Assembly: GCA_973895155.1 (NCBI GenBank)
Contig: OZ316892.1
Coordinates: 4,095,223-4,159,222, forward strand
Length of the DNA: 64,000 nucleotides
Origin: Marsupella aquatica
Taxonomy: Eukaryota > Plantae > Marchantiophyta
Direction: 5' to 3'
Shown here: positions 19,461-56,094 of the stretch, piece after piece
Numbering within the stretch: the first letter of the stretch is position 1
Layout: the number at the start of each line of letters is the position of its first letter
Notes under the pieces: generated by a model
What the model was told of the DNA's origin: nothing
Database searches by the model: none
Seen by the model: only the letters and a program-made list of their open reading frames with translations
Position numbers and translations under genes: made by a program

Positions 19461-19569
19461 AATGTAAAAGGACCATCATCTGAATTTTGATATGGACGGC
19501 GCGTCCTCCGATTTTCAGGTGTCCAGGCAGTTTTCCTTCGTCGCAGTCAGTCGGAGGATCTTGTCTGGT

Positions 19570-24664: not shown

Positions 24665-25008
24665 TGTTAGATATTGCTCTAGTCTTGTGACTCATGAGCT
24701 AACCACAGTTAGTCTAACTCGGGTTAGGACTTAGCTAATGTTAGTGGTAGTGTTGTTGTGTATATAGCCAGGGCTGATGCCAGACCCTGGTGGAACTTAG
24801 GCTCATTGTTACGGAGCTAGTTGAGAGATAGGGAGAGCTTGTGCTGTGGATGTTTGGTATGGCCGGTCGGCCTAGAGTGCAGTAAAGCTCTTGTGTGTTC
24901 CCGTGGACGTAGCCTCATGTGGAGGTGAACCACGTATCTCTCTGTGTTGACTATTGTGCGTTGGATGGTTCATGGGCTTGCCGTTACGAATGTCGTCTAT
25001 GCTCAACA
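24665..25008 (+). repeat. Copia 5' LTR (344 bp)
   Basis: TGTTAGATATTGCTC...GCTCAACA; about 11 substitutions and one 4-bp indel versus the 3' LTR (manual count). Confidence 0.97.
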
Positions 25009-26506
25009 AGTGGTATGAGAGCATGCTTGGGAGGTGACAAGGTTTTTTTGTGATAGGTTTTTCCAGCGTTCATTGTCGCTGATACATTCGGAGTTTCGTC
25101 GCATGAAACTCAAATGTGTGTGGCTGTGAGGACAGGTTAGTGAGAGGGCTTTCTAACGGTGGTTAGAACTCGCTGATCGGTATCCGTGGTGCGGAGGAAT
25201 TGAAGTTTGCGTCATTCAGGTTTTATTCGTGTTCGATGACTTTTCGGGGGAGAGACCAGAGATCGCATTTTTCAACGGTGTGAGCCGTGCGGTGCGAGAG
25301 GGATCGCACATTATAGCTCAAGTTGAAGGTTGAAGCGAGCTGGTCGTTTCGGTAGCTGGATTGCTGCCGAGTTGTTACCAAGTGTGTCGTGACGAGTGAA
25401 GGAGGCGTTCAGGTTTTTTCACAAGCTATGGAGCTTGTTCCCATCTGAACCGGGTTTCTCTTTGTGACGTCCGACTCGGTGGAAGAAACACGAAGTGCTA
25501 CGGCTCAACGGTTTGATCACGGCGAGGCGGTCGTTTTGAGTCCGGGAATGGCACTTGATGCGGAGTGAAGGCGACACGACAAAATTTTTGACTCTGCTGA
25601 GCTTGTAGACGGCGCCAACTCAATTCGGCAACTTTTCATGTCGGTGCACTTCACTTTCTCTAGCTAAACGGCATTTAGGTTTATTACACGGCCTTATTTG
25701 TGGTTAAATCAACTTTGTTTTTAAAGGTTACTTTAGACTCCCGTTTTACTGCCTTGCCCTACGGGGGTTCCCTCGGCCCGGTCCTCCTTATTTACCACCA
25801 CGCCCCGCCCCTCTGTACTTCAGCTGAGCCCAGCCGGCCCTGCCTTCCCTCTCGCGACCGGGACCTGCCGCCCGTCGCCCCTCCCTCGTCATTTTTTCCC
25901 CGTACGCGGCTGCGTACGCAGCCGCCCGTATTCTCCCCCGATGTTACGCCCTTCGTACCCCCGGCCCATACGGGGTATTTTTGGCAAATAAGGGGCTTTG
26001 GACCCCCTTTAGGGCCCCTTTTTAACCTTTTTTCCCTCTTTCTTATTTTACTTGGAAACGGGACTAGCCGCCCTCCGTTTTCACCGCTCCGACAAGGGGA
26101 ACGGCCCCCTATGAGACCTATCAGACCGTGCGGGAATATTCCTGAAAAACAGAGAGCTGTTTTTTGGCCGTCCGACAAAGATTTTGTCTGCCGAACGATA
26201 ACTTTTTTGGTTCTTTTTCGGTGAGGACGTTGCCACTGGAGTTAGCAACGCGGCGCACCAATCACATCGTGATTCCGACGACGGGTTGTTCTGGGTATTT
26301 TGGTTATTCTCCGAGGTGGTCAAAATGGGGGAGTTTCTCAAGGTTTTACCCACCCTAACCAAAATTTGAATAACTTTTCCGTCAAATTTTGATTTTGATT
26401 TCGGCTTTCAGTATTGGACTCCTAGCTTCGTGGGCTACGCGGCAGTGTTGAGTTTTGAGTTTTATGAGAAGTTTCAAAAAAAGACGTTTTTTCGTGATTG
26501 TTTCAT

Positions 26507-27644
26507 ATGAGTGACTCGGAGGATATTGGAAGAATTGGCGTCGGTGGAGCTTCAGGATCGCGATGGTCAGACGGAGAGTCTGAGGAAGAGCTGCTACCGT
26601 TTGAGGAGGAACTAGTGACACCGGTAAGATCATCGGTGCGGCGTGCAATGGAGGAAGCTGTACTACTACCAGAGCTGTTGGTAGTGGGGAAGAAGAGGAA
26701 GATGGCTAGATTTGGAGGAGTGAAGTTTGAGGTGGAGAAGTATGATGGTCATACTGATTACTTGCTCTGGGAGAAGCAAGTGAAGGGTGTTCTACGTGCC
26801 ATGGGCTTAGCTCATCTGCTTTCTTTGCGAGAGCAGTATGATGAAGAGGAGGAGATTTCTGTGAGATAGTGGAGACAGGAGCAGGTGATTGCTGTCAACG
26901 CAGTGATGCTATATCTCAAGCCGCACATCATCAAATAACTAGATGATTATGCGGATTGCACGTCACTATTCAAGGCTCTAAGAGAGAAGTACTACCGGAA
27001 AGATGTGTCAGACCGGCTGTACAAGAAGTCTCTCTTGACGAGCCTCAGGCTCAAGGAAAGGAGCAAGATGCAAGATCACTTGGATGAGTTTGACAGTCTA
27101 GCGGTGGATCTGTCAAACCTGGGAAAAGGAGTTGAAGATGAGGATAAGGCCTTGCTTTTGCTAAGCTCCTTACCGCCGTCATATCAGGGCTTGAAATAGG
27201 TGCTCTTGTACAGAGATCTAAAGTCCATTTTGTATAATGAGGTGGTGAGCTCTTTACTGTCTGATGATGCTTAGAAGAAGCTGGGTCAATCACAGACAGC
27301 ATCTTCTTCTGGCAGTGCACTGAATGTGAACCGTGGGAGAGCAGCGCAACGCTCAAATGGACAGAACAGGTGTAGATCTACATCACGGGGGAGATCTAAA
27401 TCCAGAGGAAAATCACAAGAGAGAAAGCCTCTTGCATGTTGGAATTGTGGCAAGCCTGGCCACATGAAAAGGGATTGTCGAGTAAAGGTCCCTACTGCAT
27501 CTGCTAACGCGGCATCGAGCTTGCATGAGGTAGATTTACTCGATGATGATGACATATTGTGATGCCAAGGTTATCCTCTCAACGTAGTGTCAAATCCAGG
27601 TAGTGATGACTGGATTCTAGATAGTGCATGTAGTTTTCACATTT
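26507..27644 (+). pseudogene. Copia gag and start of protease
   Basis: KFEVEKYDGHTDYLLW; EDEDKALLLLSSLPPSY; zinc knuckle CWNCGKPGHMKRDC; protease WILDSACSFHI cut by the insertion; in-frame stops. Confidence 0.92.
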
Positions 27645-28240
27645 ATCACTATATTCATTAAAACTGAAATTATAAATGATATAGGGAAATTTGGCGATTT
27701 AAAAACATAGTTTTAGGCATGAAAATTGTAAGTTTGGAAGATGAAAAATGAAAATTCAAGCATCATTAAATGTAAAATTGAGGACAAAAAATGAAATTTT
27801 GGGAAAATAAAATATTAAATTGGATGATATTAAAAAATATTTGGGTGATAAAAGTGTTCATTTGGTTGGAAAATAGATAGAATCTAGTAATAACATATAA
27901 GCTTGGATAGCATCTATATTCAAAACATTTAGCTTGAGTAAGATATCTAACTAAGCACCAATACAATGGAATGACTATATTGTCTAGACAAAGTTAACTA
28001 GGATGATATCCAACCTACTAGACTAGAAGGAATGAAATGACATCATTTTCTAGAATTAAAATATACTAAGACAAATAAAATAATAATTATAAGAAAGTCC
28101 ATTCAATAACTTTGAGAGATCATAGAGTATTAATTTGATTGTCTTGTTATCTCACTTTAGACAAACGCATGGAAATCAACTCGACCCTCTTAATCACAAG
28201 TCATTTGAGTGGAGACTTGTAACCTACGAGTTCTATCAAT

Positions 28241-31200
28241 CTACTCATCAATTATACCTTCCATGTAAATTTTGAGAGTTTTCAAAACATTCTTAGAAAT
28301 TGTCAAACCTCTATCCATAATATTTTGTTCTTTAGCACCTGACTTAAACCCATACATTGCAGAATTTGCAAACTGCCAACTTTGAGTAACATTGTCAAAC
28401 CCAGGATCCAGCTCCCAAGTCTTAGTGGTTTGAAAGTAACGTTCATATCGAACATCATCCTTTGCATCATGCTTACCATGTTTAGGCCTCCACCATTGTA
28501 CTTGGAACATAGGAGCATTCCTCTTAGGAATGCTCTCAATAGACATTGAAGAAGACCCTTCAATATGTTGCAAATCTGTTGAGGGAACCTCATGGTTTGG
28601 ATCCACACCACCCAAAGCTTGAACCTTTGCCATTTTCCTGTTCCCATTCATCCTCTGGACGTAAAAATACAAAGTGACCTTCTTGAATATCTTGTAGAGG
28701 AATCCACCTTGCAGGTTCTTGCTCTTGTCGTGCACCAACAAAGGGTGCAGCTTGATCTTCCATCTCTTCCATGTACTCATTTTGAAGGTCCATCATCTCT
28801 GGATTTTGATAAGGTTCACTTGACGGCTGAGATGTCCCCAAAATCATCTTGTAACCTGTGCCATGGTTAGTCTTTGGCCAAAAATCAGTTGTCAATGGCA
28901 ATTGTCTTTCCCCCTCCCCTTCTATTGTAAGTTCCTCGGACAGTGCTTGCACAAGATTCTTCCAATATTTGACCAGAGGAAATCTCTCTCGATATGCTGC
29001 AGAGGTCTCATCCTTACAACTTTTCTTCAAGAAATCAATATAGCGATTAAGGAATGGGATGATTTCTCCAGCCTTCTTTTGTACATCCCCAGATATAGGT
29101 TTTGCAAATGGTTGGCCTTCCGGTAAAATGAGCGCATTTGTGATGGGATTAGTTCTCCAAATGGACCTCCCCATTGCCGGAAGCCAAGGTTGCTTGACAT
29201 GTGCTTTATATTGATACACTGGCACATTATCCCTCATGGAGAAAAGAAATGCCACTGGTTTTGAGTGACCTTGTATCTCTTTCACCTGGAAAGTTTTCAA
29301 ATACTCCTTCTAAGATGCAACCTCTTGAATCAATCGTGGTACAGGATGAATGCTTTCACACTCCCAAACCTCAGCCATCAACCCCAAGAGGGTAGCAACC
29401 TCTTTGTATCTGACTTGTTTGGATACTTGAGAAAATAATGCATCCACGTCTTCATGGGTGTGGCCAACCATGAGGAATGACATTTGCACAGTTTCAAACA
29501 CCCCCTGCTAACAAGCTCAATGCAAAATGCCATCACATATTGATTTTTGTTATCTTTCCCTGAATTGTCCATCTGCAACGTTAGGTGCCTTGGTAAGGGC
29601 TTGAAAGAGCCCCTAGTAGTCTCAGGATCATCCTTAGAACCAACATCCACTGTGCTTGACTTTTTAGTCTCCTGACCATCTTCAATGCCTTGAAATCGAA
29701 CAATTGAAATATTTTTGGGTTCCAAGTAACCGGCCAGAAATGCTTCAAAGTCTAGAAGGGACTGAAATATTGGCCTAGTTGCATTCCAATTCAATCCTTC
29801 AAGAAGGTCTCCAATTTTGTCTCCTGTGTAATCTTCCAAATCTTAGAGGCATTTGGCCAAAGATGTCACGGTAAAGTCTGCATCTCCAGGCCAAAGTCCA
29901 GTCAAACTAAAATGTGCATACACTCCAGGATCTCTTCCATGGGTTAACATCCCAGTAAGAGCAATAGGCAAAGGCTGACCACTACCAGAGAGGGATTTTG
30001 GAGTGGGGACCAACTTGGGGATCCAAGTCTTGGCTTGATCCATCTTATCATGAATAATGCAAAGATAGTTTTGAGGATCCTTCTTTGCAAGAACCCTATG
30101 AGCATAGTAAACATATCTTCTTGACATTTGTTCACGAAGATGTCGCGCTCTTTTCTCTTCAATCTCTGCACGCTCTTTTTTTCTCTTCTCCCGCATCAAT
30201 TGATCTTTGAACTCAGTGCAAAACGTGCACTTAGCAAATGCACTTCCCTTGTGAAAGTCAAAATTATCAAATGAGTTTTTCCAGATGTTGTACATAGTAA
30301 CTTCAGTAACCTTAGCAAACCCATCTAATTCCATCTTGGTAAACACCTCTTGGAAAATCTCCTTCTTAGTAAAACAAGATGGGAGCCGATATTCAATAGT
30401 GTCAGTGCCGTTGGACCCACCATAGGGAAGATGTGGCATTGGTTCCCCATTTTGGATTAAAATGGACTCCAACAAGGCGCGAGCGTGCAAAGTGCTTGAT
30501 CGTGTCTTCCGTTGTGGAAACCAATTGTGCAACCAGCTTCGTATTGATTTTTGTAGTCATAGTACTTTGTTGTACTGAACCCATGCATTTTAATAAATGC
30601 ATCTTTACAAACCACACGTCCCTTTAGAACAAAAAATCCCTTTCTCTTGACTTGCTCCTCTCTACACCCAAAGAGACTAAAGATGTGACTTGTTTTGTTG
30701 TCACTTGACATTCCATGGTATTCCCTCCTCATTGCCTCTAAGTCCTCCCTGCGCATGTTCAAGCAACACTTCAGCTTGCAACAACCTTCTCTTTGGATGG
30801 AATCAATGGACTCCTCGGTAATTTTCAAAAGTGCCCTCGACTCCAAATGCCTTTTCTTCTTCTCCTCAAGATCAACTTTTGTCCTCCTCATGAAATTGTA
30901 TGGTTTTTTTGTAGGTTTACCATCACCATCTGAATCCGGATCGCCCTTAGTTTGACCCGACTCCATCCACTTCTCTGAAACTTCCTCAAGGATATCCCCA
31001 AGAAACCTTTGAGACAAAATCAATAGAAGGGATTTGATTTCCCACCTCACCAAGCCAGGGGTACCAACACGGATATTTGGAAATAATCCAGGTTCATTGA
31101 TATTCACAACAACAACACCAACATGATCTGCACCAAGAAGTTCATCGTCAATGGCACCTGTTTCAAATGGGACCGTGATAACACCTGTTGCAACCTTTCG

Positions 31201-31929
31201 ACAATGAGAAGCGTCATACAAATCAACCTCCTCCGCCATCCAGTTGGAACGTAGTGTAAAATCTTTTAATGGAAGATCATTGAAAATATTTGAACTACCA
31301 AACATGCCAAAATCTCGTAGAGTGCCCTTTCTAGAAACATGCGCAACATCCCAGATAACTTAGGTATGCAAGGCCTCTTCTATTGTATCAGCTCCAAGGT
31401 GCGAGTATGGCAATTTTTGATTTCCCTTAACAATATCAGATATTCTTATACTGATGCAACCAACCCCGAGTCTTTCAGTATGACAAATATCCATCGGATT
31501 TGTCTTGAAAATGACTCCATTTGCAACCAACTGATCAAAAATGAACATCTGAACTTCATCTCCTTCCTTGAACACGTCCTCTTCAACCCTTGCATCAATT
31601 TTGGATTTATCATTTCCAACATCTCCAGCCAAAGAGAAATCATCGACATTGATTCTTCGACGCTGAGTTGATGACCTCAAGTATGCCAATGCACAATCCC
31701 AAATCACGCAGGAGTCAATTGCCTCAGCCAATGTAGAAAATTTGGGTGAAGGAAATGGAAGTTGATGCGATCCATCAAAACACTTTTTGATCAATACCCC
31801 AATTTGATTATCCCCTAGATAAATGTTATGTATAGTATCCTGGGGGTCAATCTTTTGAACTATCCCAATTGCCATTTCAAATCCATCGATCACCAATGAC
31901 ACTTCATCCCCTCATGTAAAATTGATCAT
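28241..31929 (-). pseudogene. Sola-type DDD transposase (DUF7869-like) with three N-terminal Tnp1/EnSpm-like domains; frameshifted
   Basis: Consecutive ORF fragments: CCKLKCC..GRVVCKDAF; FAKCTFC; catalytic IIHDKMDQAK, LTLQMDNSGKDNKN, FLMVGHTHEDVDALFS. N-terminal repeats AIGIV..LG..IGV..VIWD, VANGVI..LG..VIWD, VATGVI..LG..VGV. Confidence 0.82.
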
Positions 31930-32061
31930 GATAGCAGACTATCTGTATTCAAATAAAGTTAGAAATTGTTAAGTTCCCCATGTTACAATCATGTTTCAAA
32001 ATCTGGACTCTCCTCCAAAAAATATTGTAAAATCACTCAAAACCCTAAACACATTCAAGTT

Positions 32062-32427
32062 GGGTCGAACTTATTCCGACCCTCTGACAACAATATGTCT
32101 TAAAACGATTGAATTGGCTAAACATTTACAAGTCGGGTCGGAATTATTTCGACCCTCCTCCAACAATGTCTTAAAATGATTGAATTGACTAAACATTTAC
32201 AAGTCGGGTTGGAATTATTTCGGCCCTCCTCCAACAATATGTCTTAAAATGATTGAATTTACTAAACATTGACAAGTTGGGTCAGAATTATTTCAACCCT
32301 ACTCCAACTATTAAGTTGAAATTATGTCAAAACTATTCGTGAAACTATCTTGCTTATGCTTTTATATACCAGATTAAAATGCTAGTTAAGATGACATAGT
32401 CAAGTCGACACGAAATAATTCCGACCC
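32062..32427. repeat. Array of 21-bp palindromes GGGTCGGAATTATTTCGACCC (~72-bp spacing) upstream of the transposase
   Basis: Copies at 32062, 32135, 32206, 32279 and an inverted partial copy at 32407. Confidence 0.85.
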
Positions 32428-34183
32428 ACTTCTAGAAACTATGTTAGTAATCACACAAAGGGGTACAGTAAGTTCTACACATGCTAGAGTGTGGATAAAA
32501 GTCTAGAAATGAGTAAAGTATATGATCTAGAACCTAATGTGTAAATCTTAATCTAGGTTTGGCTTAAAGGAATTGAATTAGATGCAGTTGAGCTACTACT
32601 TCTAAGATAAATAAATAAAATCACTAACTTGCTCTGCAATATATCTCTACCCACCCTTGTACAAGCTAAATGGGTACCTAGGATGCCAACATTGTAACTC
32701 TTAGCACCACAGTGCTCACCAGTGCCCTTACCAAACCTTGCATTCAACCATGCGGACCTAAACAAGGCACTCGGACAGAGGAGAGTCAGTGACCGTACCA
32801 ATCACTGTCTAAATGACAATGAACCAAAAAATGGATTGTGGGAGGTCTATACTTAGTTTGAGAGGCAAAAAACCCACACATTACCCAGCACACGAGTGGA
32901 CACCAACAGATTGGGCACGGGTGGATCAGGCACGCACCCAGCACACAAGTAGACATTGGATAGGGTGTCAGCCAATCACTCACGAGTGATAGGTGAGTTG
33001 CAAGCACACACCGCTGACAGCTTGGAAGTTTAAAATTGGTAGGTGAGTCGCGAGTGGTCGTGAGTGGTCACGCCATCACAGGTGACTCACGAGCACATGC
33101 AGCAAGGAGGATCTCCATCATTGGCGTGCATTGATGCCTCCGTATCCTCTCGGATCCTTGCCTCCTCAGACTCCTCACTCGCAGGGGGTATAGGAAGGCA
33201 GGCCTTGCGCTTGAGGTCTCACTTCCTTGCCTCCCTCTTGCCTCCTCTCTTTCCTCCTCTCCGGGCTCCTCTCTCGTCTCCTCACTCCTTGCCTCCCTCT
33301 TGTCTCGCTCTTGGTGTGAGATAAGGATGTTTATAAAAGAAGGGTTAACTAACCATAAATTTTAGAATTTTTACGTTTAAGATCTTAAATAATGCTGAAG
33401 AGGGACCTGAAGACTACTTTGAAGTGTTATGAGACTTTCAAGCCCATCTGAGGTCAACCCGGATTGATATTAGAGAAGGAGGATCGACCCGGAACTTTTT
33501 GTTATAAGCCTGGAATGAGATAAAAATCTTATACCGAGACTCTACTCAACAACAGCTGTCCATTGCCAAAGTTTTTAAAACCATAAGTCAAACACAGGCA
33601 CGACCACAGTCAAATCCGGATATAAGGAAGGAGAGTCGATCCGGCCTCTCACACCTCTCAAAGCCGAACTTAGTAAGTTTTGAGCTCCCGAGTGCATTAG
33701 GCTGTTTAAGCAATAGAGTGAGGAGGCTCTACCCTTTTGGTAGAGGATCTTGGGTCCGGATTATAGGACCAATCTTGCATTGCATGATGAGAGCCTGGAT
33801 ATGAGGGTACTGACTGATTCGTTGTGAGGGGAATGCCTACTCCACCGCTGGAAGTGAAGGCAGGAATTTTGAGATCCTGATCGTGGATACATCGGTTGTG
33901 AGAAGGGCGGCCAGGTCGACCCGGACATCACCATTGCAGGCCCGATTGAGTCCAGATTTTCCCCACGTTAGATGACCCTGCAGTGTGGTTGACGAAAACT
34001 TGATGCAATTCTTCCGAAACGATTTTCAGTTGATCAGAAACGCTGTGGCCAGGTCAACCCGGACATTTCTACCAGTGGTCGACATCGAAGAGATTGAATA
34101 GTCTGAAGTCGCAACATTGTAGAGCTTGCCGTAGAGGAGGCAGAACAGTTACCAAAAATCAATTTTCTGCTTCCAGAAATCCT

Positions 34184-35865
34184 ATGGAGCAAGGGGCGGA
34201 TCCAGCCGGAATGTCTACTTCTCGCGTCTCTAAGGGGCATTCAACCTCAACATCACCTGCACCTACTCCGGTTAAAGCCCCTGTGAGACGATCGAAGAGA
34301 AAGGAGGTCCCTATTGCCATGAAAATTCTGAGGCCAACTATTCCGGACAGTGAAGCTGAGAAGGTTAAACTGAGGGAGTCTTTGCTCAGGATGGGCTGTG
34401 AGTCTCTGATGGAGCTACCTTGGAGTTATCAAAGCGAAGATATGATCAGAGAGATCCGATCTAAGGAGTATCGGGCTGAGTTTAAGGATACCTCCAGAGT
34501 CCATCACCTGAGCGATGGACTCAGATGATGATTGCAGGAGCTTTTGTATTGGAAGATGAAGGAGAAGGTCCAGTGGGGAGAGCTGTCAATCTAATCCTTC
34601 CTTACTTCAAAGGAGCCATCAACAGTAAGGACGGGTTCAATGTTTCTAAGTGTTTGGATCCTGATCTGAGACGAGTCTTCAGCTTTCTGCTACCCCTGCT
34701 GTACCCTGAGAAGCCAAGAAGAGTTACTGTTGGAGTTGGCTCTACCATTGTTGTTGCTTACAAGGGAGAAAGAAAAGTCAACTGGGCTAAGCTTATCTTT
34801 GATTTGATAAGGAAGTTGGTACAGAACCTATCCAACAAGAGTCCTACTCCCCTCTCCTGCTACCTGGTACATCTATATAGCTTTGAAGGAGTTTTGTTCA
34901 GAGAGGAGAAGAAATTACTATTGGCCAAGTACAACTTCATCAAGTATGGAGAGACAGATCCAGATATCACCCAGGCCACCTCTAATGACAGTGAGGATGA
35001 GGAGCCAGCAAAGAAAAATCCTCGAAAGACCCGGTCTGCTGCCCGGAACCTCGATCCGGACTTTTCCGACCCGGCCTTCGTCGACCCGACTGAATTTCCG
35101 GATGCACCCGGCCATGCCTCCCTAGACACCCTAGCTGATTTCCAGATCATCTCAGACACATTCCAGAAGGTGAAGAGGAAGACCACTGTAATGGAGAAGG
35201 CCATCACTGACATTTCTCAGAAGTTAGGAGTGAAACCAGGGCAGATTCTTGAGAAGATCTCCACCATGAGTGATGCCACAGATAAGAGGAAGTTGGAGAA
35301 GGAGAATGAGTTCCTCAAGAAGAAGGTATCTGAACTCAAACAGCAGTTGGAAAGGAGTAAGAAGAAGAATGAGCTTGAGCATACTCTCCAACTCAGTATC
35401 ACTCAATCTTTGGATCTGATTGAGCCTTTGACTAAGATAGCTTCTCTGGATCTTCTTAAGGCCCAAATTTATGATGAGTATTTGGCCAAGAACACCACAC
35501 CCATCCTTTTCTCCAAGATTAACCATTTAGTGGTAGATGTGAGTACCAAGGTGGATGATGCACTTACAGGCCTCTCAAAGACCTGTGAAACCTTAACGGA
35601 GATGAGTGACTTGACTACTGAGGAGCTATTAGCTGATACTGAGATTCCTCCCTTTACTACCAGATCTTTCTCTCCTAGTCCTCATGAAGGAGTCTATTCC
35701 ACTGGCCCCTCATCACCCCTCAACCCTCCTGGTTTCCCCACTCCCAGTACACACTTCCACTCCCATTCTTACACCTATTCTCATGACCCAAGTGCCCATC
35801 AGGAGAACATGGATATTGACCCGTCCATCCCTTTTACCACTGGCCAGCAAGGAGTTTTCCTTTGA
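34184..35865 (+). pseudogene. Gypsy accessory (non-gag/pol) coiled-coil ORF, one frameshift near 34500
   Basis: MGCESLMELPW..EDMIRE..SKDGFNVSKCLDPDLRRVFSFLLPLLYPEKPRRVTVGVGSTIV..RKVNWAKLI..PTPLSCYLVHLY, then a coiled coil; resembles accessory ORFs of bryophyte Gypsy elements as recalled. Confidence 0.6.
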
Positions 35866-37068
35866 CCAGAACCCCTTGCCATGGCTAACCCTGAGGAGGT
35901 TCCTTCCCAAAAGCTAGGACCAGAATAGAGTTATATTTAGAGAGTTAGAGCCACATTAGTTTAGACTTAGAAATATCTATATAGATTAGTATATGACTAA
36001 GTAGACTCCAATATTTTGTTGATGTATCCATTGGAGACTCTACTCCATTTTTGACTAGGATAGTTCGCTTTTATTTACATATTTATTTAGACTTGGGTTT
36101 TGAAGAGGCATGTCTTTTCATAATCTCCACTTTTAGTACAAAAGGAGGAGAACCCAAAGTCAACAGGGAGAGAAAACATACATTTTGATTTCCTCATTGC
36201 CTTTGAAGGAATCTATGTCTTTTCTTCCCTTCCTTTTTACCATGGTTGAGTAAAAGGAAGAAGTTTAGCAACCCTTGAGTTGTTGTGAAGTGTTCAATGA
36301 ATGCTAGAGTGTGCCTTAATGATATTGAAAGATCAATGAGATTTGTGATCAATACATTTGGAAGATTCACCAAAGAGGAAATTGACATTTGCACAAAACC
36401 CAAACAAGCAATCTTAAGGATTGTAGGAGAAGTAAACCAATTCGAGTATCCTAGTACCGTCTTAAGCAAGACCAGAAAAGTGTCCCGAGTTGATTTACAT
36501 TGTTGTCTTCTAAATTCAATAGATGGAGAAGAGTTGCTACAAAAAATCAAAAAGCATAGAAAATGTTGATTTCTGAATCTTAAATTAAGCCATAATCCTT
36601 ATTGAAGGAGTGGTGATGGTCAGAAATTCAATTCCCTTGCACTTTGAAAACTCCTATCTACTCTCTCTCTAGTTTCAATTTTTGTTAATTCTAGTCTTTA
36701 TTATTGCACTGTGAATCCTAAGGATTACCCACTTGAGTTTGTGGTTAAACACTTATGTTAAGGAGATCACTAGAAATCTCTCCAACCTAAGAATGTTGGT
36801 GTAAACTTCTCAAATTGTGTTAATTCAGTCTTTTTGATTTTATCCACTCCTAACCGGAACGAAATCGAGTTGTTAAGGAGTAAATAGTCATTTATCTCTT
36901 TATCACCTTGCTACATACTACACCCATTTTGGCGCCGCTGCCGGGGAGTAACTGAGATCGGGAGACCTGCCGCGACAGTGGATGTCAAAAGGAGATCAAC
37001 AAAAACAGTCAAGAAGTAACGGCAAAAAGGTACTTGATTAAGGAAAAGAGGCTGGAACCTCCTAAGTT

Positions 37069-37956
37069 ATGGTGAGGAGAAGTCGACCTCAAAAGAGGGA
37101 GAGAGCCCAAATCAAGTCAAGAGAGAACCAAACCCAAAATATCAAAGATGCTACTACACATTCAAGAGCAACAATTGTGAGAAGTAGTGGAGGAAGTTAC
37201 TTTTGGGGAGGAGAATTGATTAAAGTTGATTCATGGGACACGAATGTTTTTCTTGATTGTTTGTTGATTTTTAGAAGATTTGTAAATGGTAGATTCGAAT
37301 TGGTGGAAGCCACTTATGATGAAAAATTTGACAAGGATTGTATTCCTGATTTATTGAGGGACCACCACATTGAAGAGGAAATCCTAGACATAGAAATTGA
37401 AGAGGAATTAAAGGAAGCATTGGCAACATTGAAAGGAGATCAATATTGGAGAAACAAGCTTGACAATGTACTAGTGAAGTTCTATGAGAATTCAAATGTA
37501 CTTCTAAACGAAGAGAAGCCTGTTGTGACTTTGGAAAGGCAAGAGTTGATAGGAACATTGGACCATTATAATAGAAACGGTTGGATTCTACTCAAATGGA
37601 AGGATTGGAGGGCAGGAAAACCCTGTTTTCAATGGAGTTCCCATTTGCCAGAAATGTTTGATTTGACCAATGTTTTAGTATTGAAGAGACTTTGGATTGA
37701 TGATGGTGAGTATAAGTTATTACCCATCAAGGAGGAGAATGATTTTGAATTTCTGTTAAAGAAGCACAAGCACCATACTATTTGGGCGTCTGAAACAGAG
37801 GAAATCAAAATCAAGGAGACGTTAGCCGTATTACATGAGATTAGTGAACCTTGGGTAGATACACTTGATTTCCTAGAAAATCTATTGAATGGATATAGGA
37901 CGTTAGTAGAGCAAGTGGTGTTGAATAATGGATTCTTCCAAGTAGATTTAAATTGA
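37069..37956 (+). CDS. Uninterrupted 295-aa ORF of unknown function just downstream of the PBS (possible extra 5' ORF of the retroelement)
   Basis: ATG-initiated, no stops, globular composition; followed by an 88-aa ORF at 37966-38232; no motif recognised. Confidence 0.5.
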   Translation: MVRRSRPQKRERAQIKSRENQTQNIKDATTHSRATIVRSSGGSYFWGGELIKVDSWDTNVFLDCLLIFRRFVNGRFELVEATYDEKFDKDCIPDLLRDHHIEEEILDIEIEEELKEALATLKGDQYWRNKLDNVLVKFYENSNVLLNEEKPVVTLERQELIGTLDHYNRNGWILLKWKDWRAGKPCFQWSSHLPEMFDLTNVLVLKRLWIDDGEYKLLPIKEENDFEFLLKKHKHHTIWASETEEIKIKETLAVLHEISEPWVDTLDFLENLLNGYRTLVEQVVLNNGFFQVDLN

Positions 37957-38514
37957 TACCCCAAAATGCCGAGACCCCAACCAAGATCACTTGGTAGTTT
38001 TAGAGTTCAAAACATTAGGGATTCTTATTTGCGAACGAGAGTACTCAGTCTAAGAGGTAGACGAGGGATTCACTGGTTATCAATCACGTGGTGGGAAGGA
38101 GATCTCCTACATTTAGTAATTCTCAAACTGAACGGAAGGATCAGTGGAGAAAGATACATTGTTATTTCAATTTCAGAATTGGCCAGAGACCTCATGACCA
38201 GGAGGAATGATAGGAGAAGAGATCAGCAGTAAGAAGATTGTCTTTTTGGAAGAGGAAAAAGGGAGAAGAAGAGACCCGGACCAATGTCCAACCCGGACCC
38301 GGACATTTGTCCAGGTAGGCCATTGTCCGACCCGGATCAGAAGCCGGGTCTGAACCGTCGTACCCAAAAGGCACCCGGAAACTCAAGAGTAGGAGGTAAA
38401 CGTCGTGACCTAGGGAACCTCAGGGTGGACCCTCGGCAAGAAAAAGAGGAGTATGTCCAGGAATCTCATGAGGATCGATTCATTCAATTATTCCAATCAG
38501 ATTTATGAGTTGGT

Positions 38515-41500
38515 ATGTCAAACAAAGGAAAGTCAAATTGGAGAAAGAAGAGTAACGTTGACTCTGAGGACGAATCATCAGGAGTGACATCAGTGCAGCC
38601 ACGACAATTATTTCCTGATTCACCACCTGTTGGGATCGTTTCTGATCGACTAACGGAACTCCAAGATCGATACGGAAAAGGGAGTATTGAAAACCCTACC
38701 TCCAGTCGTCCAACCTACATTAATTTAAGATCTGGACCTAAATTGGTACCACCAACCCAGATTGGTAGGGGATATATACCCACGGGAAGAGGATGTCAAA
38801 AGTCTACAAGTTTAGACAGATTGAAGACCACATGTCAATGTTAAAAATATGATGTTGACCATTTTGTTTTCAATGTTTCTTACCAGAAAAAAATCTTGAG
38901 AAGCCGGAGTTAAATATTATGGATGAGGATATCAAGGACTTTGTTTTCCCTGACCAAGATACTCCAGGATTTAGATGGGCACTAGAAGTTGGGGTGTCGG
39001 CGAAAGGCAGTCTCTTGATTTGTTTCAAGGGCCTCACAAGTCAATTGAATGACCGCAAGACAATTGTTACTCTAGGTCTAGTCGTCCTTGTGAACACGGA
39101 CAACAACCGCAATGCAACAATTATTGTTGAGTCCAATGAGAAATCTCAGTGGATGAGACTTCTGGTGCCAATAAAACTCTACTCGACTTTACTGAATGTT
39201 GAGTGGATGGCTTGATTGGAGATAAGCGTAGCTGATATGGGATTCTTCCCAGATGGAGTAACAATTGATCAGATGTTTGAGAAGACGCATTCTCAAATAA
39301 GTGGAGTTGACCTAGTGTTTGGATTTCTCTACGTAAAGAAGCACATGCATGACAATGCGGACAGTGTGGACCCTCCGTCTACTTGGATAGTTGAAAGGAT
39401 GATTGAGAAGGCACATTTTTCATACGAGCAAGCAATCGACAAGAGTTTCATTTTTTGTCCAGAGTTTCAAGAGGCCGCATGCCGGACGTGGATTTCAGAG
39501 ATGAAGAAAAAAGAAGCAAAGCATAAGGCAAAGGAGAGAAAGAAGACAATGGAAAGAAGCGCGCAATCAAAGACAGAGAAGAAATGAAAGCTTCGAGAGC
39601 CGGTTGTTCAACAAGAGAAACAATATGGGAGTTCACGCCGTAAGAAGATGGCTTAAAAAAATGAAGATGATGAGGGCCCCCAAAAAAAGCAGACAAAGAA
39701 GGCAAAGGTTGCAAAATCAAAACCAATGTCAGCGTCGACTTCAAACTTTGTCTTGCATCCAGAGGATGATATGTGTCCGACAGAAGGACCCAAAGAAGAT
39801 GATGTGCTCAAAGGCCAAGAGGTTTTGCGTAATATTGAGCAGTATTATACTTTTGGCATCCGCAAAGTTTTTGATATTCCTGTAAAAAGTATTATTCCGC
39901 CATCGGCCATTTTTGTATATCGAATGTTCAATCTTTTGCATGCAATGGAGATATCAAAGTCTATGATGAAAAACCCTGGATAGGAACCATAAGTTGCTGA
40001 TTTGATTCTGTATCACGAGAGCACTAAATAGTTGCTTCTTATGACAACACACCTCAAGATAGGAAAGAGTTTTTGATTGGTGTGAAGAAGCATGAGATCC
40101 AATTCCTTGCCATCAGTGGCCAGCATTCTGCAAGAGCTGCCCAATGGATCCAAGGGGGGGCCGAGACTGACGCCAAGCTGACAGATCTTGCCAACAAACT
40201 AAAGTATAGGAAAGCAAGGATCCTATCTGACCTCACTCCGAAGACAATTTTGGTTGAGCATTCAAGTTTATCGAATGCTGTCAATGATACTATGCAATTT
40301 AAGTCTTGTTTTTTAGAGACTATTGTTCATGCACGAAGGCAGTTTGAGGAGTGCGGGAAACCGCCGCGTCCAAGGATTGGGACCAATCAAAATACAGACA
40401 GGAAAAACTATCAGGTACATGTTGGAGCAACACAAACTATTCTTGATCCGCTTTGTTTAAAGATTGTCAGTGGTAGAGGTTTGCCTGGCCCCAAGGGCGA
40501 GACTGCCTTGTCTTGTTTTCCTTGGTTAGAAGATTAAAGCAAATGTTTGCCTCGCCCTCAGGGCAAGGTAACCTAGACTAGTCTCTCTAAGAATAATTCC
40601 CTAGTTCCATTTCAGTCAATTGCGGTTAGATGTAGAGGTTCGCCATGCCCTTGGGGCGAGGCGGCTTAGCCTGTTTCAAACATAGGTATAAATTTTCTAA
40701 TATATGCATTGTACCCTGAAACTAATGTCAAGTCCATTGGATATGCAGGATTGGTTTGCCCTTGCAAAGGTTACAATGGGGAAGTCAAGCCTAAAGAGCA
40801 TTTATTGGTTACTTTTTGCCGAAGATGAGCTCTTTGAATTATGGCGGAATGTGTGTGCAAAATGGTTGAGTGGGAAGCTCCAAGATGGGGCTGGTGGGTA
40901 TGGAGGGCCAAGACCCCCAAAATTGATCACTCCCGGTACCTTCGATGCTTTGAAGGAGAGATTAGTAGCAAACAGATAATTGAGATCTTGAAGGACGTTG
41001 AAGAGGAGCGTGCCTTGCTGAAGAAGGATATCACCAACAAATCAGAGCTTGTCGCAATGGGAGACTTGGCCCTTACAATCAAGATAATGTCCAAATTGAG
41101 AACAGTCATTATTGGCTATTTCATGGAAAAGTATCGTGAGAAGTTTCCTGTTGGCACATCTTGGGAGTCTCTGGTGATATTGTTGCCTTCCTTGAAATCT
41201 GAGCTTGAGATGACAAAATTGAGGAGAGCAGCGGGTGAGGTTTACCTCAACAATTCATTGAAGAAGAATGTGGTCAAGGAGAGTTTCCCACAAAGTCGGA
41301 TGGTCAGACTAGATGGGGTGTATTGTAAAGAATTTGGTGGGATTGGTCGTTCTCGCACGGAGCCTTTCTTGACATTTTTTAGTGATAATTTGATGAAGAC
41401 GACCGTGCCGGAAATGCTACAAGAGCCTTCGCCTTTGTGTCCTCTTGCCATTGTTGACTTCAGTAGGCTCCGACAACATGTTTGGACCGATGCTGAAATT

Positions 41501-43027
41501 ATTGCATTACTACAATACATTGTGGATCTTCCAAGAAATCCAACAATTGTTGTTGTCATGACTGTGCATCCGGGGCCACTTGCTACAAACATTTTGAGTG
41601 CCCTTACGAAATTGCAACATGAAAAGGGAATGGACATCCACGTTGACTACGGGAGCTATCGACGGAGTGATACACCAGTTCCAGAGGGCTTACTTTTCAG
41701 TTGTGGTATGGAGGAGATAATCTTTGAAGGAATCACCACTGAGGAGAAATTTGATTGGAAGCAAGTGTTCAGGCCTGGATTTAATTGCCAATTTTCTTAC
41801 AATTCGGCGATCGACCCTAATTTCCAAGTGGAAGACAAGACGGAGAAGCGAGATAAGAATAAGAGTAAGACAAGTAAGGAGACAGAGACTGAGTCAACTT
41901 CGGCATTTCACATTGGAGATTTCTTACGAAAGGCTCCCATGTTTGAGATGGTGGGAAGTAGAGGTGGCTTTGTGAATATTCACGCTAAGCCAAAATGTAT
42001 ACTGCAGAGTATTATTGATTTTTTTTTGGCTGAAGGGGAGACTATACTTGACTTTTTCTCGGGAGGACAGGTTATGAAGGTGTCATTGTTGTGTTTCAGA
42101 GAATGCTTTGCGTATTCAGACACTGAGGATGAATATGATTTCACTCAGGCATATGGAAGGGTTCTCTGCGAGAAATTTCCTTCCATAATGAGTGACCGGA
42201 TGGGCGGTTCCAAATTTGGTAGAGCCCGTGATGGGGTTTCCAAGCATGTTGGCGCCAAAGAAGGCGTAGACCAGGGCGAAGATGAGATTGAGGAAGGAGA
42301 ATTGGGTCATGACACAGACGATAGGGTCACCCGAATTTTGGATGAACGTGGAACACAAGTGGTAGGTATTCCCTACTTTGGTGTGGGGTTGGCCGATTTT
42401 GTGGGTCAACCTGAGGGCGACCCACCAAGAAATCCCTTTGCCGGTGTAGAGAATTGGATGCACCAGGCGGACCCAAATCTTACATCCTCCACATCAGACG
42501 CACATTGGAAGGCAACCGCAGATGATCGAGGCAATATTGACGCAGTAGAATTGGGAGAAATGTCAGACATTGCGCTTGCTAAGGAGGATGATCGTCAAGT
42601 ACCTGAGATCGCTGCAAATGAAGAAGAGAAGGCAGGTGCTTCAAATCCTCCCCTGTCTCCTCTATATTGCTCATCAGAGACTAAATTGGTTTTTACAAGT
42701 GCTTCTACAGGAAGCCCCGTAGTATTATCATTTTCACAAAATTCTGGATCCGAGATCGACAGGACTGGATATATGAAAACAGTCGGTCCTGCAACTCATT
42801 TTATATGGAGAAATGGACCAAAGGTTGGAATGATAGAATCACTAGACGATGCTCCAAAGATAATGGCAAAATCAGATTACAAAAAACTGAACTTGAGACT
42901 GAGCCCAGTTTTTGCACCCCCATCCTTTGAAGAGCAACTTCCCAGTGGTATCAATTCCGAGATACAGAGTGTTCTAGGTGATCAAACAATAGATGAATTT
43001 GGGCATTTTAGCATTGGAAATTATTAG
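38515..43027 (+). pseudogene. Transposon cargo gene: ParB/Srx-like domain fused to a beta-class N6-adenine/N4-cytosine DNA-methyltransferase-like domain
   Basis: GT-AG introns ~38765-38886 and 40415-40748 join the ORF pieces in frame. ParB-like YRMFNLLHAMEISKSM..FLAISGQHSARAA (~39900-40290). MTase-like PLAIVDFSR (motif IV position, ~41450) and VNIHAKPKCILQSIIDFFLAEGETILDFFSGG..RECFAYSDTEDEY (motifs X-I-II, 41970-42140). Several stops and frameshifts. Confidence 0.72.
40483..40662. repeat. Three 21-bp near-palindromes (consensus GCCTCGCCC-N3-GGGCGAGGC) in the cargo-gene intron
   Basis: Copies at 40483, 40549, 40642. Confidence 0.75.
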
Positions 43028-43371
43028 CCCTTTCTTTGGTTCTTGGTATTTTAATGACAATCTAAGCTTTGTCTTTGTAATAATATACTTTTTTACAGAC
43101 CAAAGTTCCATCGTAGAATCTCCTTCCTCAAAGGATTTTGTTGGCATTCCCTCGAAAAGCGTTGCTGTGGACGAAGGGTTTGACCCAGGTATACTTTGGA
43201 TCTAAAAAATGACAAGTGAATGTAATTAATGTTTTTCTAGGAGGGTCGCCCCAGGGTCGTTCCTCTCTACTTCAAATGCTATAACAAAGTTTGTTTGATT
43301 TCAAATTTTGAGAGTTTTCCTCCGTAGTAATTGTTTAAACTTTGAGTCGCATTGACTAAAGGCTTATTTTA

Positions 43372-44383
43372 ATGTTTCCAGAATTCACTCCAATACTACA
43401 CTCTCCGATCCGGCAAAAGCTCTTGGTTCTTGACCTTAACAAGATTTGTTGGGATTGCATTAAGACCAGAAGCTCAGGACCATGGCAAAATCAGACAAGT
43501 TTACGTGGTGTGCACTGGGGGAGACGTGGAGGGTTTAATTTCATGTATGTGGAGCGCCCATACCTCCACGAATTTCTATATGCAGCTTTCATGGTTTTTG
43601 ACGTCGCAATTTGGACCTGTGCAAGGAGGCCAAAAACAATGGAGTTAATGGAGTTGATTTTCACTGAGGAGGAGCGACAGAAGTTCAAGTTTGTCTTTAC
43701 TCAAGAAGATACCTTTGATAGTTGCATCCAAAGGCCAGATATAACAGATGGGAAGGCCAATTTACTTCTGAATAATTTGCAAACCATTTGGGACCGTTTT
43801 CCAGAAAAATATGACGCTTCTAATACAGTTCTTATTGATGATTCTCCATTGAAGGCATTTTTGAATTATGACGTGAATGGACACTTTTTTGCCCGAGATA
43901 TTATGGCCGTATCTTTGCAAATTGAGAAAGGCTTACTGCGTTCAACATTATATCACTGTCAACAATCCAAAGTGGTCTGTTTTCAATTTATTAACAAGCA
44001 AGGAGGATCATGCTGCCATCTATGCTCTTTTGGAACAGAAGTGGGCAGATTGTCGTTGTATCCATAAGGAGTTTGGAACCATCTTGGATGTGACTCCTGA
44101 AGAGATTCCTTGGGACGGAAAGAACGAGGTGCAGCATTACCCACCACTGGAGACGTGGACCACGGATGAGATCGAAGAAACTGCAAACGCAATACTTGGA
44201 GACAACTATTCTGGTCCTCAAAGACAAAATAGAAGGCATTTTATTTGGAAAGTTCTCAGAACTAGGGATCTCACCAATAAGTTTAAGAACCACCATGCGA
44301 GAGATACTTGCAACCGTGACATCCGCTATGATAAATCAGGAAGCAAACTTTCTTGTTCAAATGAGTTTTGTCTTGATCATTAG
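43372..44383 (+). pseudogene. Transposon cargo: FCP1/NIF-family HAD phosphatase-like domain (one frameshift ~43875); separate gene or last exon of the cargo gene
   Basis: KLLVLDLNKIC; ERPYLHEFL..FDVAIWTCA; NLQTIWDRFP..YDASNTVLIDDSPLKAFLN; lies inside the right TIR. Confidence 0.8.
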
Positions 44384-44851
44384 GAGATAGGGTTGCTCTA
44401 GTGCCTACCCTGAATTGTATATTCATATTATGTCAAAGGATATGTTTTGAACATGTAGGATAAAGTAAATAATTATGATATGCTTAGTGTGAGGCTCTCT
44501 CACTGGACTGGACAATTTAATAATTATATAGTGGGTCAATCTCATTTTGACCCTTGATTTATGACCATATATATTTTTTAATTTATAGATGGTCTGAGTG
44601 GTATTGGCCTCTGATTTTTGGACTAAATCAAATTTACTCTAATTTTTAAATTAATTAGAATATATGATTTAAGTTATTATTAAACATTTGGGTGAAAAAA
44701 AACAAAATTTTGGGCGTTCAAAAGTGTATATTTGGGCTGAAAAAAATTAACTTTTGGGAATGCTTTAATAGAAATTTGGCTTGAAAAAAAAACTTTAGGG
44801 TTCATCTTATGGACTTTTAAAAGTACAATTTTAATGAAAATAGTGATATTT

Positions 44852-48209: not shown

Positions 48210-48557
48210 TGTTAGATATTGCTCTAGTCTTGTGACTCATGAGCTAACCACAGTTAGTCTAACTCGGGTTAGGACTTAGCTAATGTTAGCGATAGTGTTG
48301 TGGTGTATATAACCAGGGCTGATGCCAGACCCTGGTGGAACTTACTAAGGCTCATTGTTACGGAGCTAGTTGAGAGATAGGGAGAGCTTGTGCTGTGGAT
48401 GCTTGGTATGGCCGGTCGGCCTAGAGTGCAATAAAGCTCTTGTGTCTTCCCGTGGATGTAGCCTCATGTGGAGATGAATCACGTATCTCTCTGTGTCGAC
48501 TATTGTGCGTTGGATGGTTCATGGGCTTGCCGTTACGAATGTCGTCTATGCTCAACA
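48210..48557 (+). repeat. Copia 3' LTR (348 bp)
   Basis: Direct repeat of 24665-25008, preceded by the PPT and followed by TSD CGAAC. Confidence 0.97.
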
Positions 48558-50105
48558 CGAACACAGCGCCCGGGCGTTGTGTTCAAAAGTTGAAAATTTA
48601 GTGTCCTTATACAAAAAAGCATGTTTTTTTCGAACACAACGTTACTTTTACACAACTCCCGGGCGCTTTGTTCGAATTTGGCATTGTGTTCGAGGATGAC
48701 GTTGTGTTCGAACTTGGGCACTATGTTCGAGTGAGGGGTTTGCTGTCGTGTCTTTTGTTATAATGAAGTGTTCAAAGTTGACAGTATGTTGGAGTGAGGA
48801 CATTGTGAAAGCAATCTACAATGAGCTCACAGAAAGCAAATATGTTTCACATTATAATTATATGCTTACCATGGGATAACATTTGTTGACTTGGTGCATA
48901 TTATTCATGGTTTGTAAGGTCTAATTTTGTGATACAAATCATTTGTTATCTGCCCATGTTGAATTCAGTGTTTAAATTAACTAAATATTCACAATTTAAC
49001 ACTTATCTCTAACACATCAATTCTATCCTATAATTCCAGCTTATACCCCAATCCATACCCCAATCCAGCATATGCCTAAATTTGAACACAACGCCACTAT
49101 TCAAACACAACATTAATTTTCAAACACAACGCCAATATTCGAACACAACACTACATGTTACAAAAATCCAAAACAAAGTGTCAAAATTCAAACTAAACAC
49201 CCAGGGCTCACTAATCGAATATAGCGTCCCTTGACTCACTATTCGAATATAGTGCCCGGGCGCTGTGTTCAGGGGAAGACGGTAGTGTAGAAGCTATCTG
49301 ATCAGGTGGACAAATGGTGTGGGTATTATCCAAAAGTAATGAGAATATACATAAAGGGTGGCCAGTGGGCACTTGCCCGATATGCAGTTAAATGTGCAAT
49401 GACCAAAAGAAGGATGCCCAAAGGATCTTCCTATCATGTACCCTTTGAAAAAAAAGAATGGCTCAAATAATGGTGTACTCTCCTATAGATGTAAGATGAA
49501 ACTATACCAGGGGGCTCTCAAAACCATATATAGGCTAGATGAAATGGATATGTCATATGTCTAGATATGGAGCTCTCAATGTAAGATATATGGCCACTTG
49601 TGAGATTCTGTTGAAAGTTAGAGTCATCCACATAGCCTACAATCCAATCACTCCTCCAAGAACAACAACTGCAAACTGATATGGAGATAGATGATCGGAT
49701 AATGCACAACAATATTGTGATGATGATAGAGTCCAAGACACAACACATAAAAACTTCTCTCCAGTGCCAAGGGGGTGAAATCTAAACCATGGCTAATAAG
49801 CAAGATGCTCCCAAAATCCGAGATACTCAGAGGCAAATGCCGTACTGCAGCACACTGATAAAGGGAAAACATCACGGATGGAAGCCTAAGTATTGGTCTT
49901 TAGTTGTTCAAAATAAAGCTCGAAAATGCTCAGAAACCCTACACTCTAAACCCCCTATATGCAAGCCCTTGGGCAGGCAGCCCTTAGTCTTTTATTTAAG
50001 AGAACTTCCTCTTGAGAGAACTTTACTTTATACATAGCAACTTCGGTAGAATGAGCCCAAATGGGGACTACGAACTCTGCTGTGAAACTTTACTACGTCA
50101 ACTGG

Positions 50106-55227: not shown

Positions 55228-56094
55228 TAAACCCCCAAATGCCACATAGAACGATTCATCTTGGAGAACACCTTGCTGCTGGAGGACGTCGAGCACGACA
55301 ATGCCGTGTCTGCTGCTGCTGCTGTAGACAGAAGCACCGTCGTCATTTTCTTCTCCCACAGCGTTCACCCTGTAAACTCAGAAGGCCCGCACGTCGAGAG
55401 ATACACCAAGCGCCTTAAACCCCTGAAACTACAAGTTTCGTTTCCAAGATTGGTATGCAACCAGTCCAATTAAGATGGTTGTAGAGTATCTTGTTGACTG
55501 TATTTGGTAATTTACAACTATAATAAAGGATCCTGTCGTTTTTAGTCCTTCTTTCCCATACAAAAAAATTTCTGGGCAGGGAAAATCCAGAGCCATTGGA
55601 TTTGATTAGCTGTTTTTGCTCACCATTGATGAAAAAAATGTACACCCTATCACGTATTTGCTTCCCGCTGCCCCATAATGCCCCCGGCCAATCCCTATGG
55701 GCCTACCCTCCTTGCACACTGGCATAGAGCTCGTCTTAGTATAAAAGTGCAAGGATTGGTATGCAACCAGTCCAGTTAAGATGGTTGTCTAGTATCTTGT
55801 TGACTGTATTTGGTAATCTTATTATAAAAGCGCCAATAAAAGTTTACTCTTAAGGGTCACGGTCTAGAAGGGTCACGGTCTAGACAGTAACTCTCCCTAT
55901 AGAGACAAGGCTGATAATGAGGTTCAATAAGGTAAACATCTTAAATGAGGATGAACAAAATTGACATTAACTAAAGACAAACCTGAAATGAGAATGGACA
56001 AAAAACAAGGATGAGTCAAAGACTGATCAAATAGCATATAAATTGTAGCAAGATTTTCCTTCATATCCATATATGTTGAAGGAATGGGTCATGG

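Follow-up and report, generated by a model that had tools for sequence, protein, structure and literature searches.

The window analysed here comprises 64,000 nucleotides of the liverwort Marsupella aquatica (GenBank assembly GCA_973895155.1, contig OZ316892.1, positions 4,095,223 to 4,159,222 of the forward strand). It holds a giant Sola-like DNA transposon that spans positions 27645-44847 (17,203 bp) and lies inside a Copia retrotransposon. Next to its transposase, which is read from the minus strand, the element carries a divergent, spliced plus-strand gene that we call the cargo. The cargo product would combine a ParB/Srx-like fold, an all-helical region, a beta-class amino-methyltransferase fold and, likely, a NIF-type HAD domain. 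The catalytic signatures of the three recognisable folds are replaced throughout the family, and the element contains palindromes suited to be the binding sites of such a protein. The features of the locus are the following (window coordinates).

27641-27644, plus strand: left target-site duplication (TSD), ATTT
27645-27676, plus strand: left terminal inverted repeat (TIR), 32 bp, of which 27 agree with the right TIR
28241-31929, minus strand: broken Sola-like DDD transposase of about 1230 codons (DUF7869, E = 2.4e-10), collinear with the relative P0187
32045-32427, no strand: 73-bp tandem array (3.6 copies) and one extra site, together five 21-bp palindromes, candidate binding sites
33400-38850, plus strand: probable nested remnant of Ty3/Gypsy type, with a site like a primer-binding site (PBS) near 36930, an extra open reading frame (ORF), a stretch like a long terminal repeat (LTR) and truncated 5' ORFs
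38919-39791, plus strand: probable N-terminus of the cargo, continuing in frame into the ParB-like part, with 3 stops
39792-40414, plus strand: ParB/Srx-fold domain, motif SGQHS at 40115, collinear with residues 53-257 of the relative P0157
40415-40748, plus strand: GT-AG intron, conserved in position in a metagenome relative, with three palindromes of a second type
40749-41356, plus strand: conserved all-helical region, frameshift near 40943, candidate DNA-reading part
41357-42200, plus strand: beta-class amino-methyltransferase fold, DFSR codons from 41456, DFFSGG at 42050
42670-43027, plus strand: small conserved C-terminal domain after an acidic linker, from the alignment (pLDDT about 95 at residues 941-980 of P0157)
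43099-43188, plus strand: putative 90-bp linker exon, splice sites predicted from the sequence, phase-compatible with the NIF exon
43382-44383, plus strand: NIF-type HAD domain (Pfam NIF), motif I DLNKI, frameshift near 43880
44533-44553, no strand: one degenerate copy of the palindrome GGGTC-N11-GACCC, subterminal on the right side
44816-44847, minus strand: right TIR, 32 bp, pairing with the left TIR
44848-44851, plus strand: right TSD, ATTT
24667-48559, plus strand: host Copia LTR retrotransposon, from its LTRs and Pfam hits, given as context

Results

Element boundaries and insertion site

The agreement between the two TIRs has a binomial p of about 6e-8 for this one pair and a self-BLAST E of 0.022; the pair is absent from the 25 longest pairs given by a generic repeat finder. 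Stronger evidence than such repeat or self-BLAST detection comes from the empty site. When the element and one ATTT are excised, the gag-pol frame of the Copia element is restored in its protease region. Hence, the TIRs, the flanking ATTT and the restored frame together show that the boundaries are genuine, as the preliminary description of this DNA had them. A 4-bp AWWT target is a hallmark of Sola1 according to the accessible part of one study (PMC3845634), and ATTT conforms to it in this single insertion; the accessible parts of two others (PMC4455052; bioRxiv 2021.09.26.461848) merely list the Sola subgroups. TIRs, another Sola1 feature, are present as well.

The host Copia has LTRs at about 24667-25010 and 48212-48559, which differ at 11 of 344 positions and by one 4-bp indel, and a 5-bp TSD. 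Its gag, zinc knuckle, integrase and reverse transcriptase domains are recognised by Pfam on the two sides of the element. Since the element sits inside this copy, its insertion is not older than the Copia copy itself.

The transposase

The transposase gene starts with an ATG at 31929 and ends near 28241. It is collinear with P0187, a relative of 1300 amino acids, at 36-60% identity, and is broken by 4 stops and 3 frameshifts. We found 26 related database proteins: 12 from Riccia sorocarpa, one from Calypogeia fissa and 13 that carry no species name. Sola1 transposases have a DDD catalytic triad. In a 25-row alignment, where we counted the rows spanning each motif, three acidic motifs are invariant, HDKMD (20/20), Q/E-x-D (22/22) and HED-V/I-D (16/16). 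All three are present in the window, where they begin at 30052, 29575 and 29465, and would provide such a triad, the choice of the catalytic Asp in each being ours. A CxxC motif, at 30235 in the window, is also kept in every row that spans its position. Taken with the match to DUF7869, these motifs bear out the minus-strand DDD transposase of the preliminary description, and we assign the element to a Sola-like group, probably Sola1, an assignment that draws on the TSD, the TIRs and the acidic motifs.

DUF7869 was the sole Pfam family matched. Our searches found no relative among the solved structures of the PDB and no literature naming DUF7869, and a scan of prokaryote genomes with the transposase alignment upheld none of 18 candidates. 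At the N-terminus lie two or three repeated domains resembling TNP1/Transposase_23 (31360-31929 and 30900-31250, minus strand), a module usually associated with En/Spm elements; the match is weak in the window and reaches E = 2e-8 in the Calypogeia relative P0177. As a separate observation, CpG and CHG are more depleted in the transposase (0.37 and 0.66 over 28241-31911) than in the cargo (0.58 and 0.91), possibly a trace of differing histories of host methylation.

The cargo gene and its ParB/Srx-like part

Between 39792 and 43009 the cargo is collinear with an unbroken relative of 1009 amino acids, P0157, at 33-42% identity. This collinearity and the intron position kept in the metagenome relative agree with the divergent spliced gene proposed before. 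Upstream, the 291 N-terminal codons match neither Pfam nor the longest Riccia relative. About 190 of the codons 5' of the ParB-like part (38919-39500, plus strand) resemble a folded domain that no tested family or relative matches.

The ParB/Srx part, which has 2 stops and one frameshift in the window, was modelled from the N-terminal piece of the relative taken by itself (pLDDT 74, with two of five models above 60). The model resembles Myxococcus ParB in VIA (Z 9.2, root-mean-square deviation 2.8 over 95 residues), all 34 rows listed there belong to the ParB/Srx fold group or to SspE, and Foldseek ranks Noc, ParB, KorB and Srx (sulfiredoxin) highest. These models argue for the ParB/Srx-like fold that the preliminary description had suggested. 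A fimbrial subunit was the only PDB entry matched by a profile of this part; it is a repeated match of 35 residues and was rejected as chance. The ESM Atlas gave no usable match to the 129-residue ParB piece. ParB CTPases bind their nucleotide through a GxxR motif. In the cargo family the motif reads SGQHS, SGAHS or SRQHS, with a terminal Ser in place of the Arg in 8/8 rows.

The small domain that follows the methylase-like part (42670-43027, residues 929-997 of P0157) is beta-rich, confidently modelled and conserved in many relatives, where it closes the methylase exon.

The methylase-like part

The AlphaFold model of P0157, built on a 108-row alignment, has a core with pLDDT above 90. Its residues 463-736 superpose on CcrM in VIA with Z 17.2 (root-mean-square deviation 3.5 over 216 residues) and reach Z 15-16 with M.RsrI, M.PvuII (15.5) and MboIIA, and Foldseek aligns them to beta-class amino-methyltransferases with E = 7e-7. 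The model has a permuted Rossmann fold with motif IV ahead of motif I, and the sequence profile matches M.RsrI (E = 1.6e-8). An amino-methyltransferase-like fold, as described earlier, is thus well supported by the models. Motif I, for the site of S-adenosylmethionine (SAM), is recognisable: DFFSGG aligns to DFFAGSG of M.RsrI with a gap of one residue, is exact in 24/39 rows and, together with the Lys that precedes it, is strongly kept (39/41 rows).

Motif IV tells another story. We located its expected place, where the second strand of the domain ends, from what we take to be the positions of DPPY and SPPF in the solved enzymes. There the family reads D-F-S/T/A/G-R, and DFSR in the window, a placement made by strand order and aligned ranges and not by residue alignment. 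The first Asp is kept in 41/47 rows and the fourth residue is Arg in 31/47, whereas the canonical (D/N/S)PP(Y/F/W) occurs at this position in 0/47 rows; nor does the word [DNS]PP[YFW] occur anywhere in the 158 family proteins. Transposon-borne methylase domains that are inactive have a precedent in DIRS1 elements, as described in the accessible part of the report on them (PMC4738411).

The NIF domain and the extent of the cargo protein

The HAD domain matches Pfam PF03031 (NIF) with E = 1.3e-11 and 44.9 bits against a cut-off of 21.8, in line with the NIF/FCP1 domain described before, and its best PDB match is UBLCP1 (E = 7e-7). The accessible part of a study of the DxDxT enzymes states that they need both Asp residues, one as nucleophile and one as acid-base (PMC3592404). 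The window has DLNKI at this place and the three relatives with a visible motif I all have DVEGL, i.e. the second Asp is Asn in the window and Glu in the relatives. Of the DD motif, too, the relatives lack the second Asp. The suggested role as a phosphatase of the C-terminal domain (CTD) of RNA polymerase II, through FCP1-type catalysis, is therefore rejected, since DxDxT is missing from the window copy and from the three relatives.

The NIF domain is likely to be spliced onto the methylase chain, to judge from three Riccia gene models in which the methylase-like and NIF domains form one chain. Among 2759 candidates, none was a longer fused form of the cargo (1578-4505 amino acids).

Palindromes

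The arrays of palindromes had escaped the preliminary description. Five palindromes of the type GGGTCG-N9-CGACCC lie at 32062-32427, four of them inside the 73-bp array; they precede the start of the transposase by 130-500 bp. Intron 1 holds three palindromes of a second type, with the core TCGCCC-N3-GGGCGA; one more of these lies in the linker and another in the intron that precedes the NIF exon. One degenerate palindrome lies about 260 bp inside the right TIR, and none was seen close to the left TIR. When up to one mismatch is allowed, GGGTC-N11-GACCC occurs seven times in the element and never in the other 46.8 kb of the window, compared with a mean of 0.32 and a maximum of 2 in 100 shuffles, and a spacer of 11 is preferred; this enrichment is no more than suggestive and its significance is overstated, because the patterns were drawn from the same sequence and three of the seven hits fall in one array.

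The nested segment and the decay of the copy

The segment that parts the two genes had been described as a nested remnant. Its PBS-like site near 36930, which we take to resemble the PBS of Tat/Athila elements, speaks for this, and a private repeated word is found at both its ends; no Pfam match to its two ORFs, and no LTR pair or TSD in the window sequence, could be found. Its edges are uncertain, the left one lying between about 32430 and 33455, so that the earlier figure of about 11 kb for the element without it becomes 11-12 kb. A deletion at this segment may have removed the promoter of the cargo.

The window copy is dead in both genes. The transposase has 4 stops and 3 frameshifts in 1229 codons, the cargo 5 stops and 3 frameshifts in about 1600, and the host Copia 9 stops and one frameshift in 1342. 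The density of such disruptions is similar in all three, which fits both genes having been intact at insertion. Hence, the element was probably intact when it entered the Copia and decayed afterwards.

The cargo family

The largest open piece of the cargo has five relatives, and a profile made from these retrieves 222 representatives at E<=1e-3; the list covers the best 150. We looked up 24 cargo relatives: 14 are distinct loci of Riccia sorocarpa, two are from Calypogeia fissa and eight have no species name; no alga occurs among those of the 24 that are named. The transposase family is present in the same two species. When metagenomes were scanned with the cargo alignment, 384 pattern matches yielded one locus of 1.8 kb with 33% protein identity. 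In a FastTree phylogeny of the 27 of 108 rows that cover at least 55% of the 415 columns, rooted at the midpoint, the window cargo joins Calypogeia and nameless sequences with a support of 0.98 and is separate from the Riccia groups. Judging from these sequences, the cargo is an old family and not a one-off, and it is multicopy in two liverworts. The replacements in the catalytic motifs are traits of the family and not products of decay in the window copy.

Other features of the window

Four further observations concern the rest of the window. Directly after the 3' LTR and TSD of the Copia lies a short MITE-like element (miniature inverted-repeat transposable element; 48559-49270) with 29-bp arms that are 83% complementary. 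An intron-free adenylate kinase frame (58115-58879, minus strand; Pfam ADK, E = 6e-59) may be a retrocopied host gene. Long CG-rich arrays of 68-bp and 74-bp tandem repeats at 19555-21533 may belong to one arm of a further large element. An AT-rich array of 150-165-bp repeats with inverted copies occupies 55478-56720.

Discussion

The preliminary description took the cargo of this element for a toolkit by which a transposon marks its own DNA or counters silencing. Because the replacement of the three catalytic signatures is itself conserved, we shift this reading from a writer to a binder. We propose that the cargo protein is a non-catalytic, sequence-specific helper that binds its own element and controls the expression of the transposase, a proposal that we believe and doubt in equal measure and whose binding, expression and direction of control are all predicted. 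The ParB fold and the helical part would dimerise on the 21-bp palindromes of the element, as ParB and KorB do on theirs. The methylase fold, with its SAM-site motif kept and its motif IV gone, could be a module gripping DNA or binding SAM. The HAD fold, probably in the same chain, could be a docking module for phospho-proteins, not a phosphatase. The protein would act at the promoter of the transposase, most likely in favour of the element, and the likeliest net effect would be that the element stays open to transcription despite silencing by the host, as VANC achieves for VANDAL; repression in the manner of KorB is the alternative direction. The present copy would have jumped into the Copia probably intact, and only then decayed.

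A number of observations weigh against this proposal. The fold assignments come from the models of P0157 and not from the broken window copy; for the ParB part, the best Foldseek E is only 1.8e-3 and sequence profiles by themselves, including Pfam on 10 rows, do not detect ParB. No helix-turn-helix was matched in the helical region by fold searches with the whole model, which the methylase domain filled. The splice donor that the fusion to the NIF domain needs, near 43016, is non-canonical in the window copy, and the intact P0157 ends ahead of any NIF domain. Motif IV was placed indirectly, and its first Asp and the SAM-site motif are strongly kept, as an active enzyme with an odd motif would show. 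The enrichment in palindromes carries the bias stated above. Finally, transposase and cargo are seen to travel together in the window copy alone, and among the 14 cargo and 12 transposase loci of Riccia no locus tags are neighbours, the nearest being 107 apart. This last is a weak negative, given that gene models sample decayed copies.

Other explanations have to be considered. The cargo might be a cofactor of transposition that binds internal sites and either pairs the distant ends or loads the transposase, for which TnpA of En/Spm and the Myb-like protein of Harbinger provide models. A long element with short and imperfect TIRs might well need one, ParB-fold proteins dimerise and bridge DNA, and one palindrome does lie 260 bp inside the right TIR. 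Yet, most palindromes are at the 5' region of the transposase and in the introns of the cargo, more than 4 kb from the ends, and none was found near the left TIR; we regard this explanation as unlikely. We see somewhat less chance that the cargo is an active amino-methyltransferase which uses DFSR to mark the DNA of the element, as in the preliminary description and in a suggestion made for Ectocarpus. The complete beta-class fold, modelled at high confidence, the first Asp in 41/47 rows, the conserved motif I with its Lys (39/41) and the profile match to M.RsrI are what one would expect of an enzyme. But inactive METTL14 chains score alike by fold, so the fold by itself is no proof of activity, the family is one residue shorter than M.RsrI after motif I, and a Pro-Pro or a stacking aromatic is found at motif IV in 0/47 rows. 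The replacement of motif IV in all 47 rows, and the absence of the canonical word from the 158 proteins, tell against the proposed DNA-marking toolkit. Quite improbable, too, is a cargo that was a separate or captured unit, once caught between the TIRs and useless to the transposon: a foreign segment of 5-6 kb with uncertain edges parts the two genes and their Riccia locus tags are not neighbours, but the same divergent layout exists in an Ectocarpus Sola1, the two arms, and no other part of the window, hold palindromes of the same geometry, neither an inner TIR pair nor a TSD is seen around the cargo, and the two genes are equally decayed.

One might speculate further, though we find it doubtful, that the cargo protein is a triple pseudoenzyme with which an ancient lineage of giant Sola elements of land plants counteracts its own silencing. 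The ParB fold would clamp the palindromes, the methylase fold would act as a reader that grips target bases or shields them from the 5-methylcytosine of the host, and the dead CTD-phosphatase fold would capture RNA polymerase II in its phosphorylated form at the promoter of the transposase. If this were true, the control of a transposon would be made wholly from disarmed enzymes of bacteria and of the host.

The more modest proposal, of a helper that binds its own element, matters because there are very few systems, such as VANC, in which the resistance of transposons to host silencing is understood in detail. In 2025, a role in marking their own DNA was suggested, untested, for the ParB-methylase helpers of algal transposons, and the plant branch favours a binder over a writer. 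The candidate binding sites and the intact relatives make this idea directly testable in a liverwort or moss model. On the other hand, the family does not explain the origin of the N4-methylcytosine enzyme of Marchantia. DN4MT1 carries TSPPY, according to the accessible part of its description (bioRxiv 2021.02.12.428880), and the family has no such motif; a link to DN4MT1 is therefore rejected, the family is not its likely source, and the suggestion that these elements were a vehicle for the amino-methyltransferases of plants finds no support.

The core of the design, a Sola1 with a divergent ParB-methylase gene, has already been published for Ectocarpus. Sola elements had been said in the preliminary description to be transposase-only, which this case contradicts: Sola1-1_Ec32, reported in 2025, is a 21.5-kb Sola1 with a ParB-like and N4/N6-methyltransferase gene opposite the transposase, whose protein of 1104 amino acids was proposed to bind and modify its own DNA (PMC12477816). 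In the part of that paper accessible to us, the best match is given as Sola1-1_PPa and Iyer 2011 is cited for green algal cases. Our element is likewise giant, Sola-type and flanked by a 4-bp TSD, with the ParB-methyltransferase gene on the strand opposite the transposase. It is 17.2 kb long with 32-bp TIRs and ATCAC termini, whereas Sola1-1_Ec32 has a 282-bp TIR and AACCG termini. The same part of the paper mentions no phosphatase and is silent on the catalytic motifs of the algal protein, and our cargo adds a NIF/HAD domain; the two were compared by description, not by sequence. What is new is the occurrence in land plants, the added HAD domain and the loss of catalytic motifs across the family; we found no literature report of a ParB-methylase Sola in land plants or with a NIF domain.

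Similar associations exist in other transposons. Giant Plavaka (EnSpm) elements of the red alga Bostrychia carry the genes PAG2 and PAG3 (bioRxiv 10.1101/2025.02.11.637652). As far as the accessible text goes, they share with our element a PF01555 methylase and ParB-like domains, and inverted-repeat tandem arrays lie beside the ParB-like PAG3. Yet, they belong to another superfamily and keep the two domains in separate genes, the methylase fused to SET and the ParB to a 2OG oxygenase. In the VANDAL (Mutator) elements of Arabidopsis, the target motifs of VANC are found in tandem repeats, introns and upstream regions (PMC5735166, accessible part). There too, an accessory gene and short motifs are amassed in one element. 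The analogy is one of function, with no relation claimed in fold or sequence, and the VANC sites are 9-bp and non-palindromic with an effect shown by experiment, whereas ours are predicted and palindromic. At the level of domains, the methylase part resembles CcrM, M.RsrI, M.PvuII, the rotifer N4CMT and Marchantia DN4MT1 in fold, motif order and the region of motif I, and differs from the beta-class enzymes by D-F-x-R at motif IV, where DN4MT1 has TSPPY. In the same way, the HAD part stands with FCP1, SCP and UBLCP1 by its Pfam match and by its best solved relative, and apart from them by the missing DxDxT, its second Asp being replaced in the window and its relatives alike.

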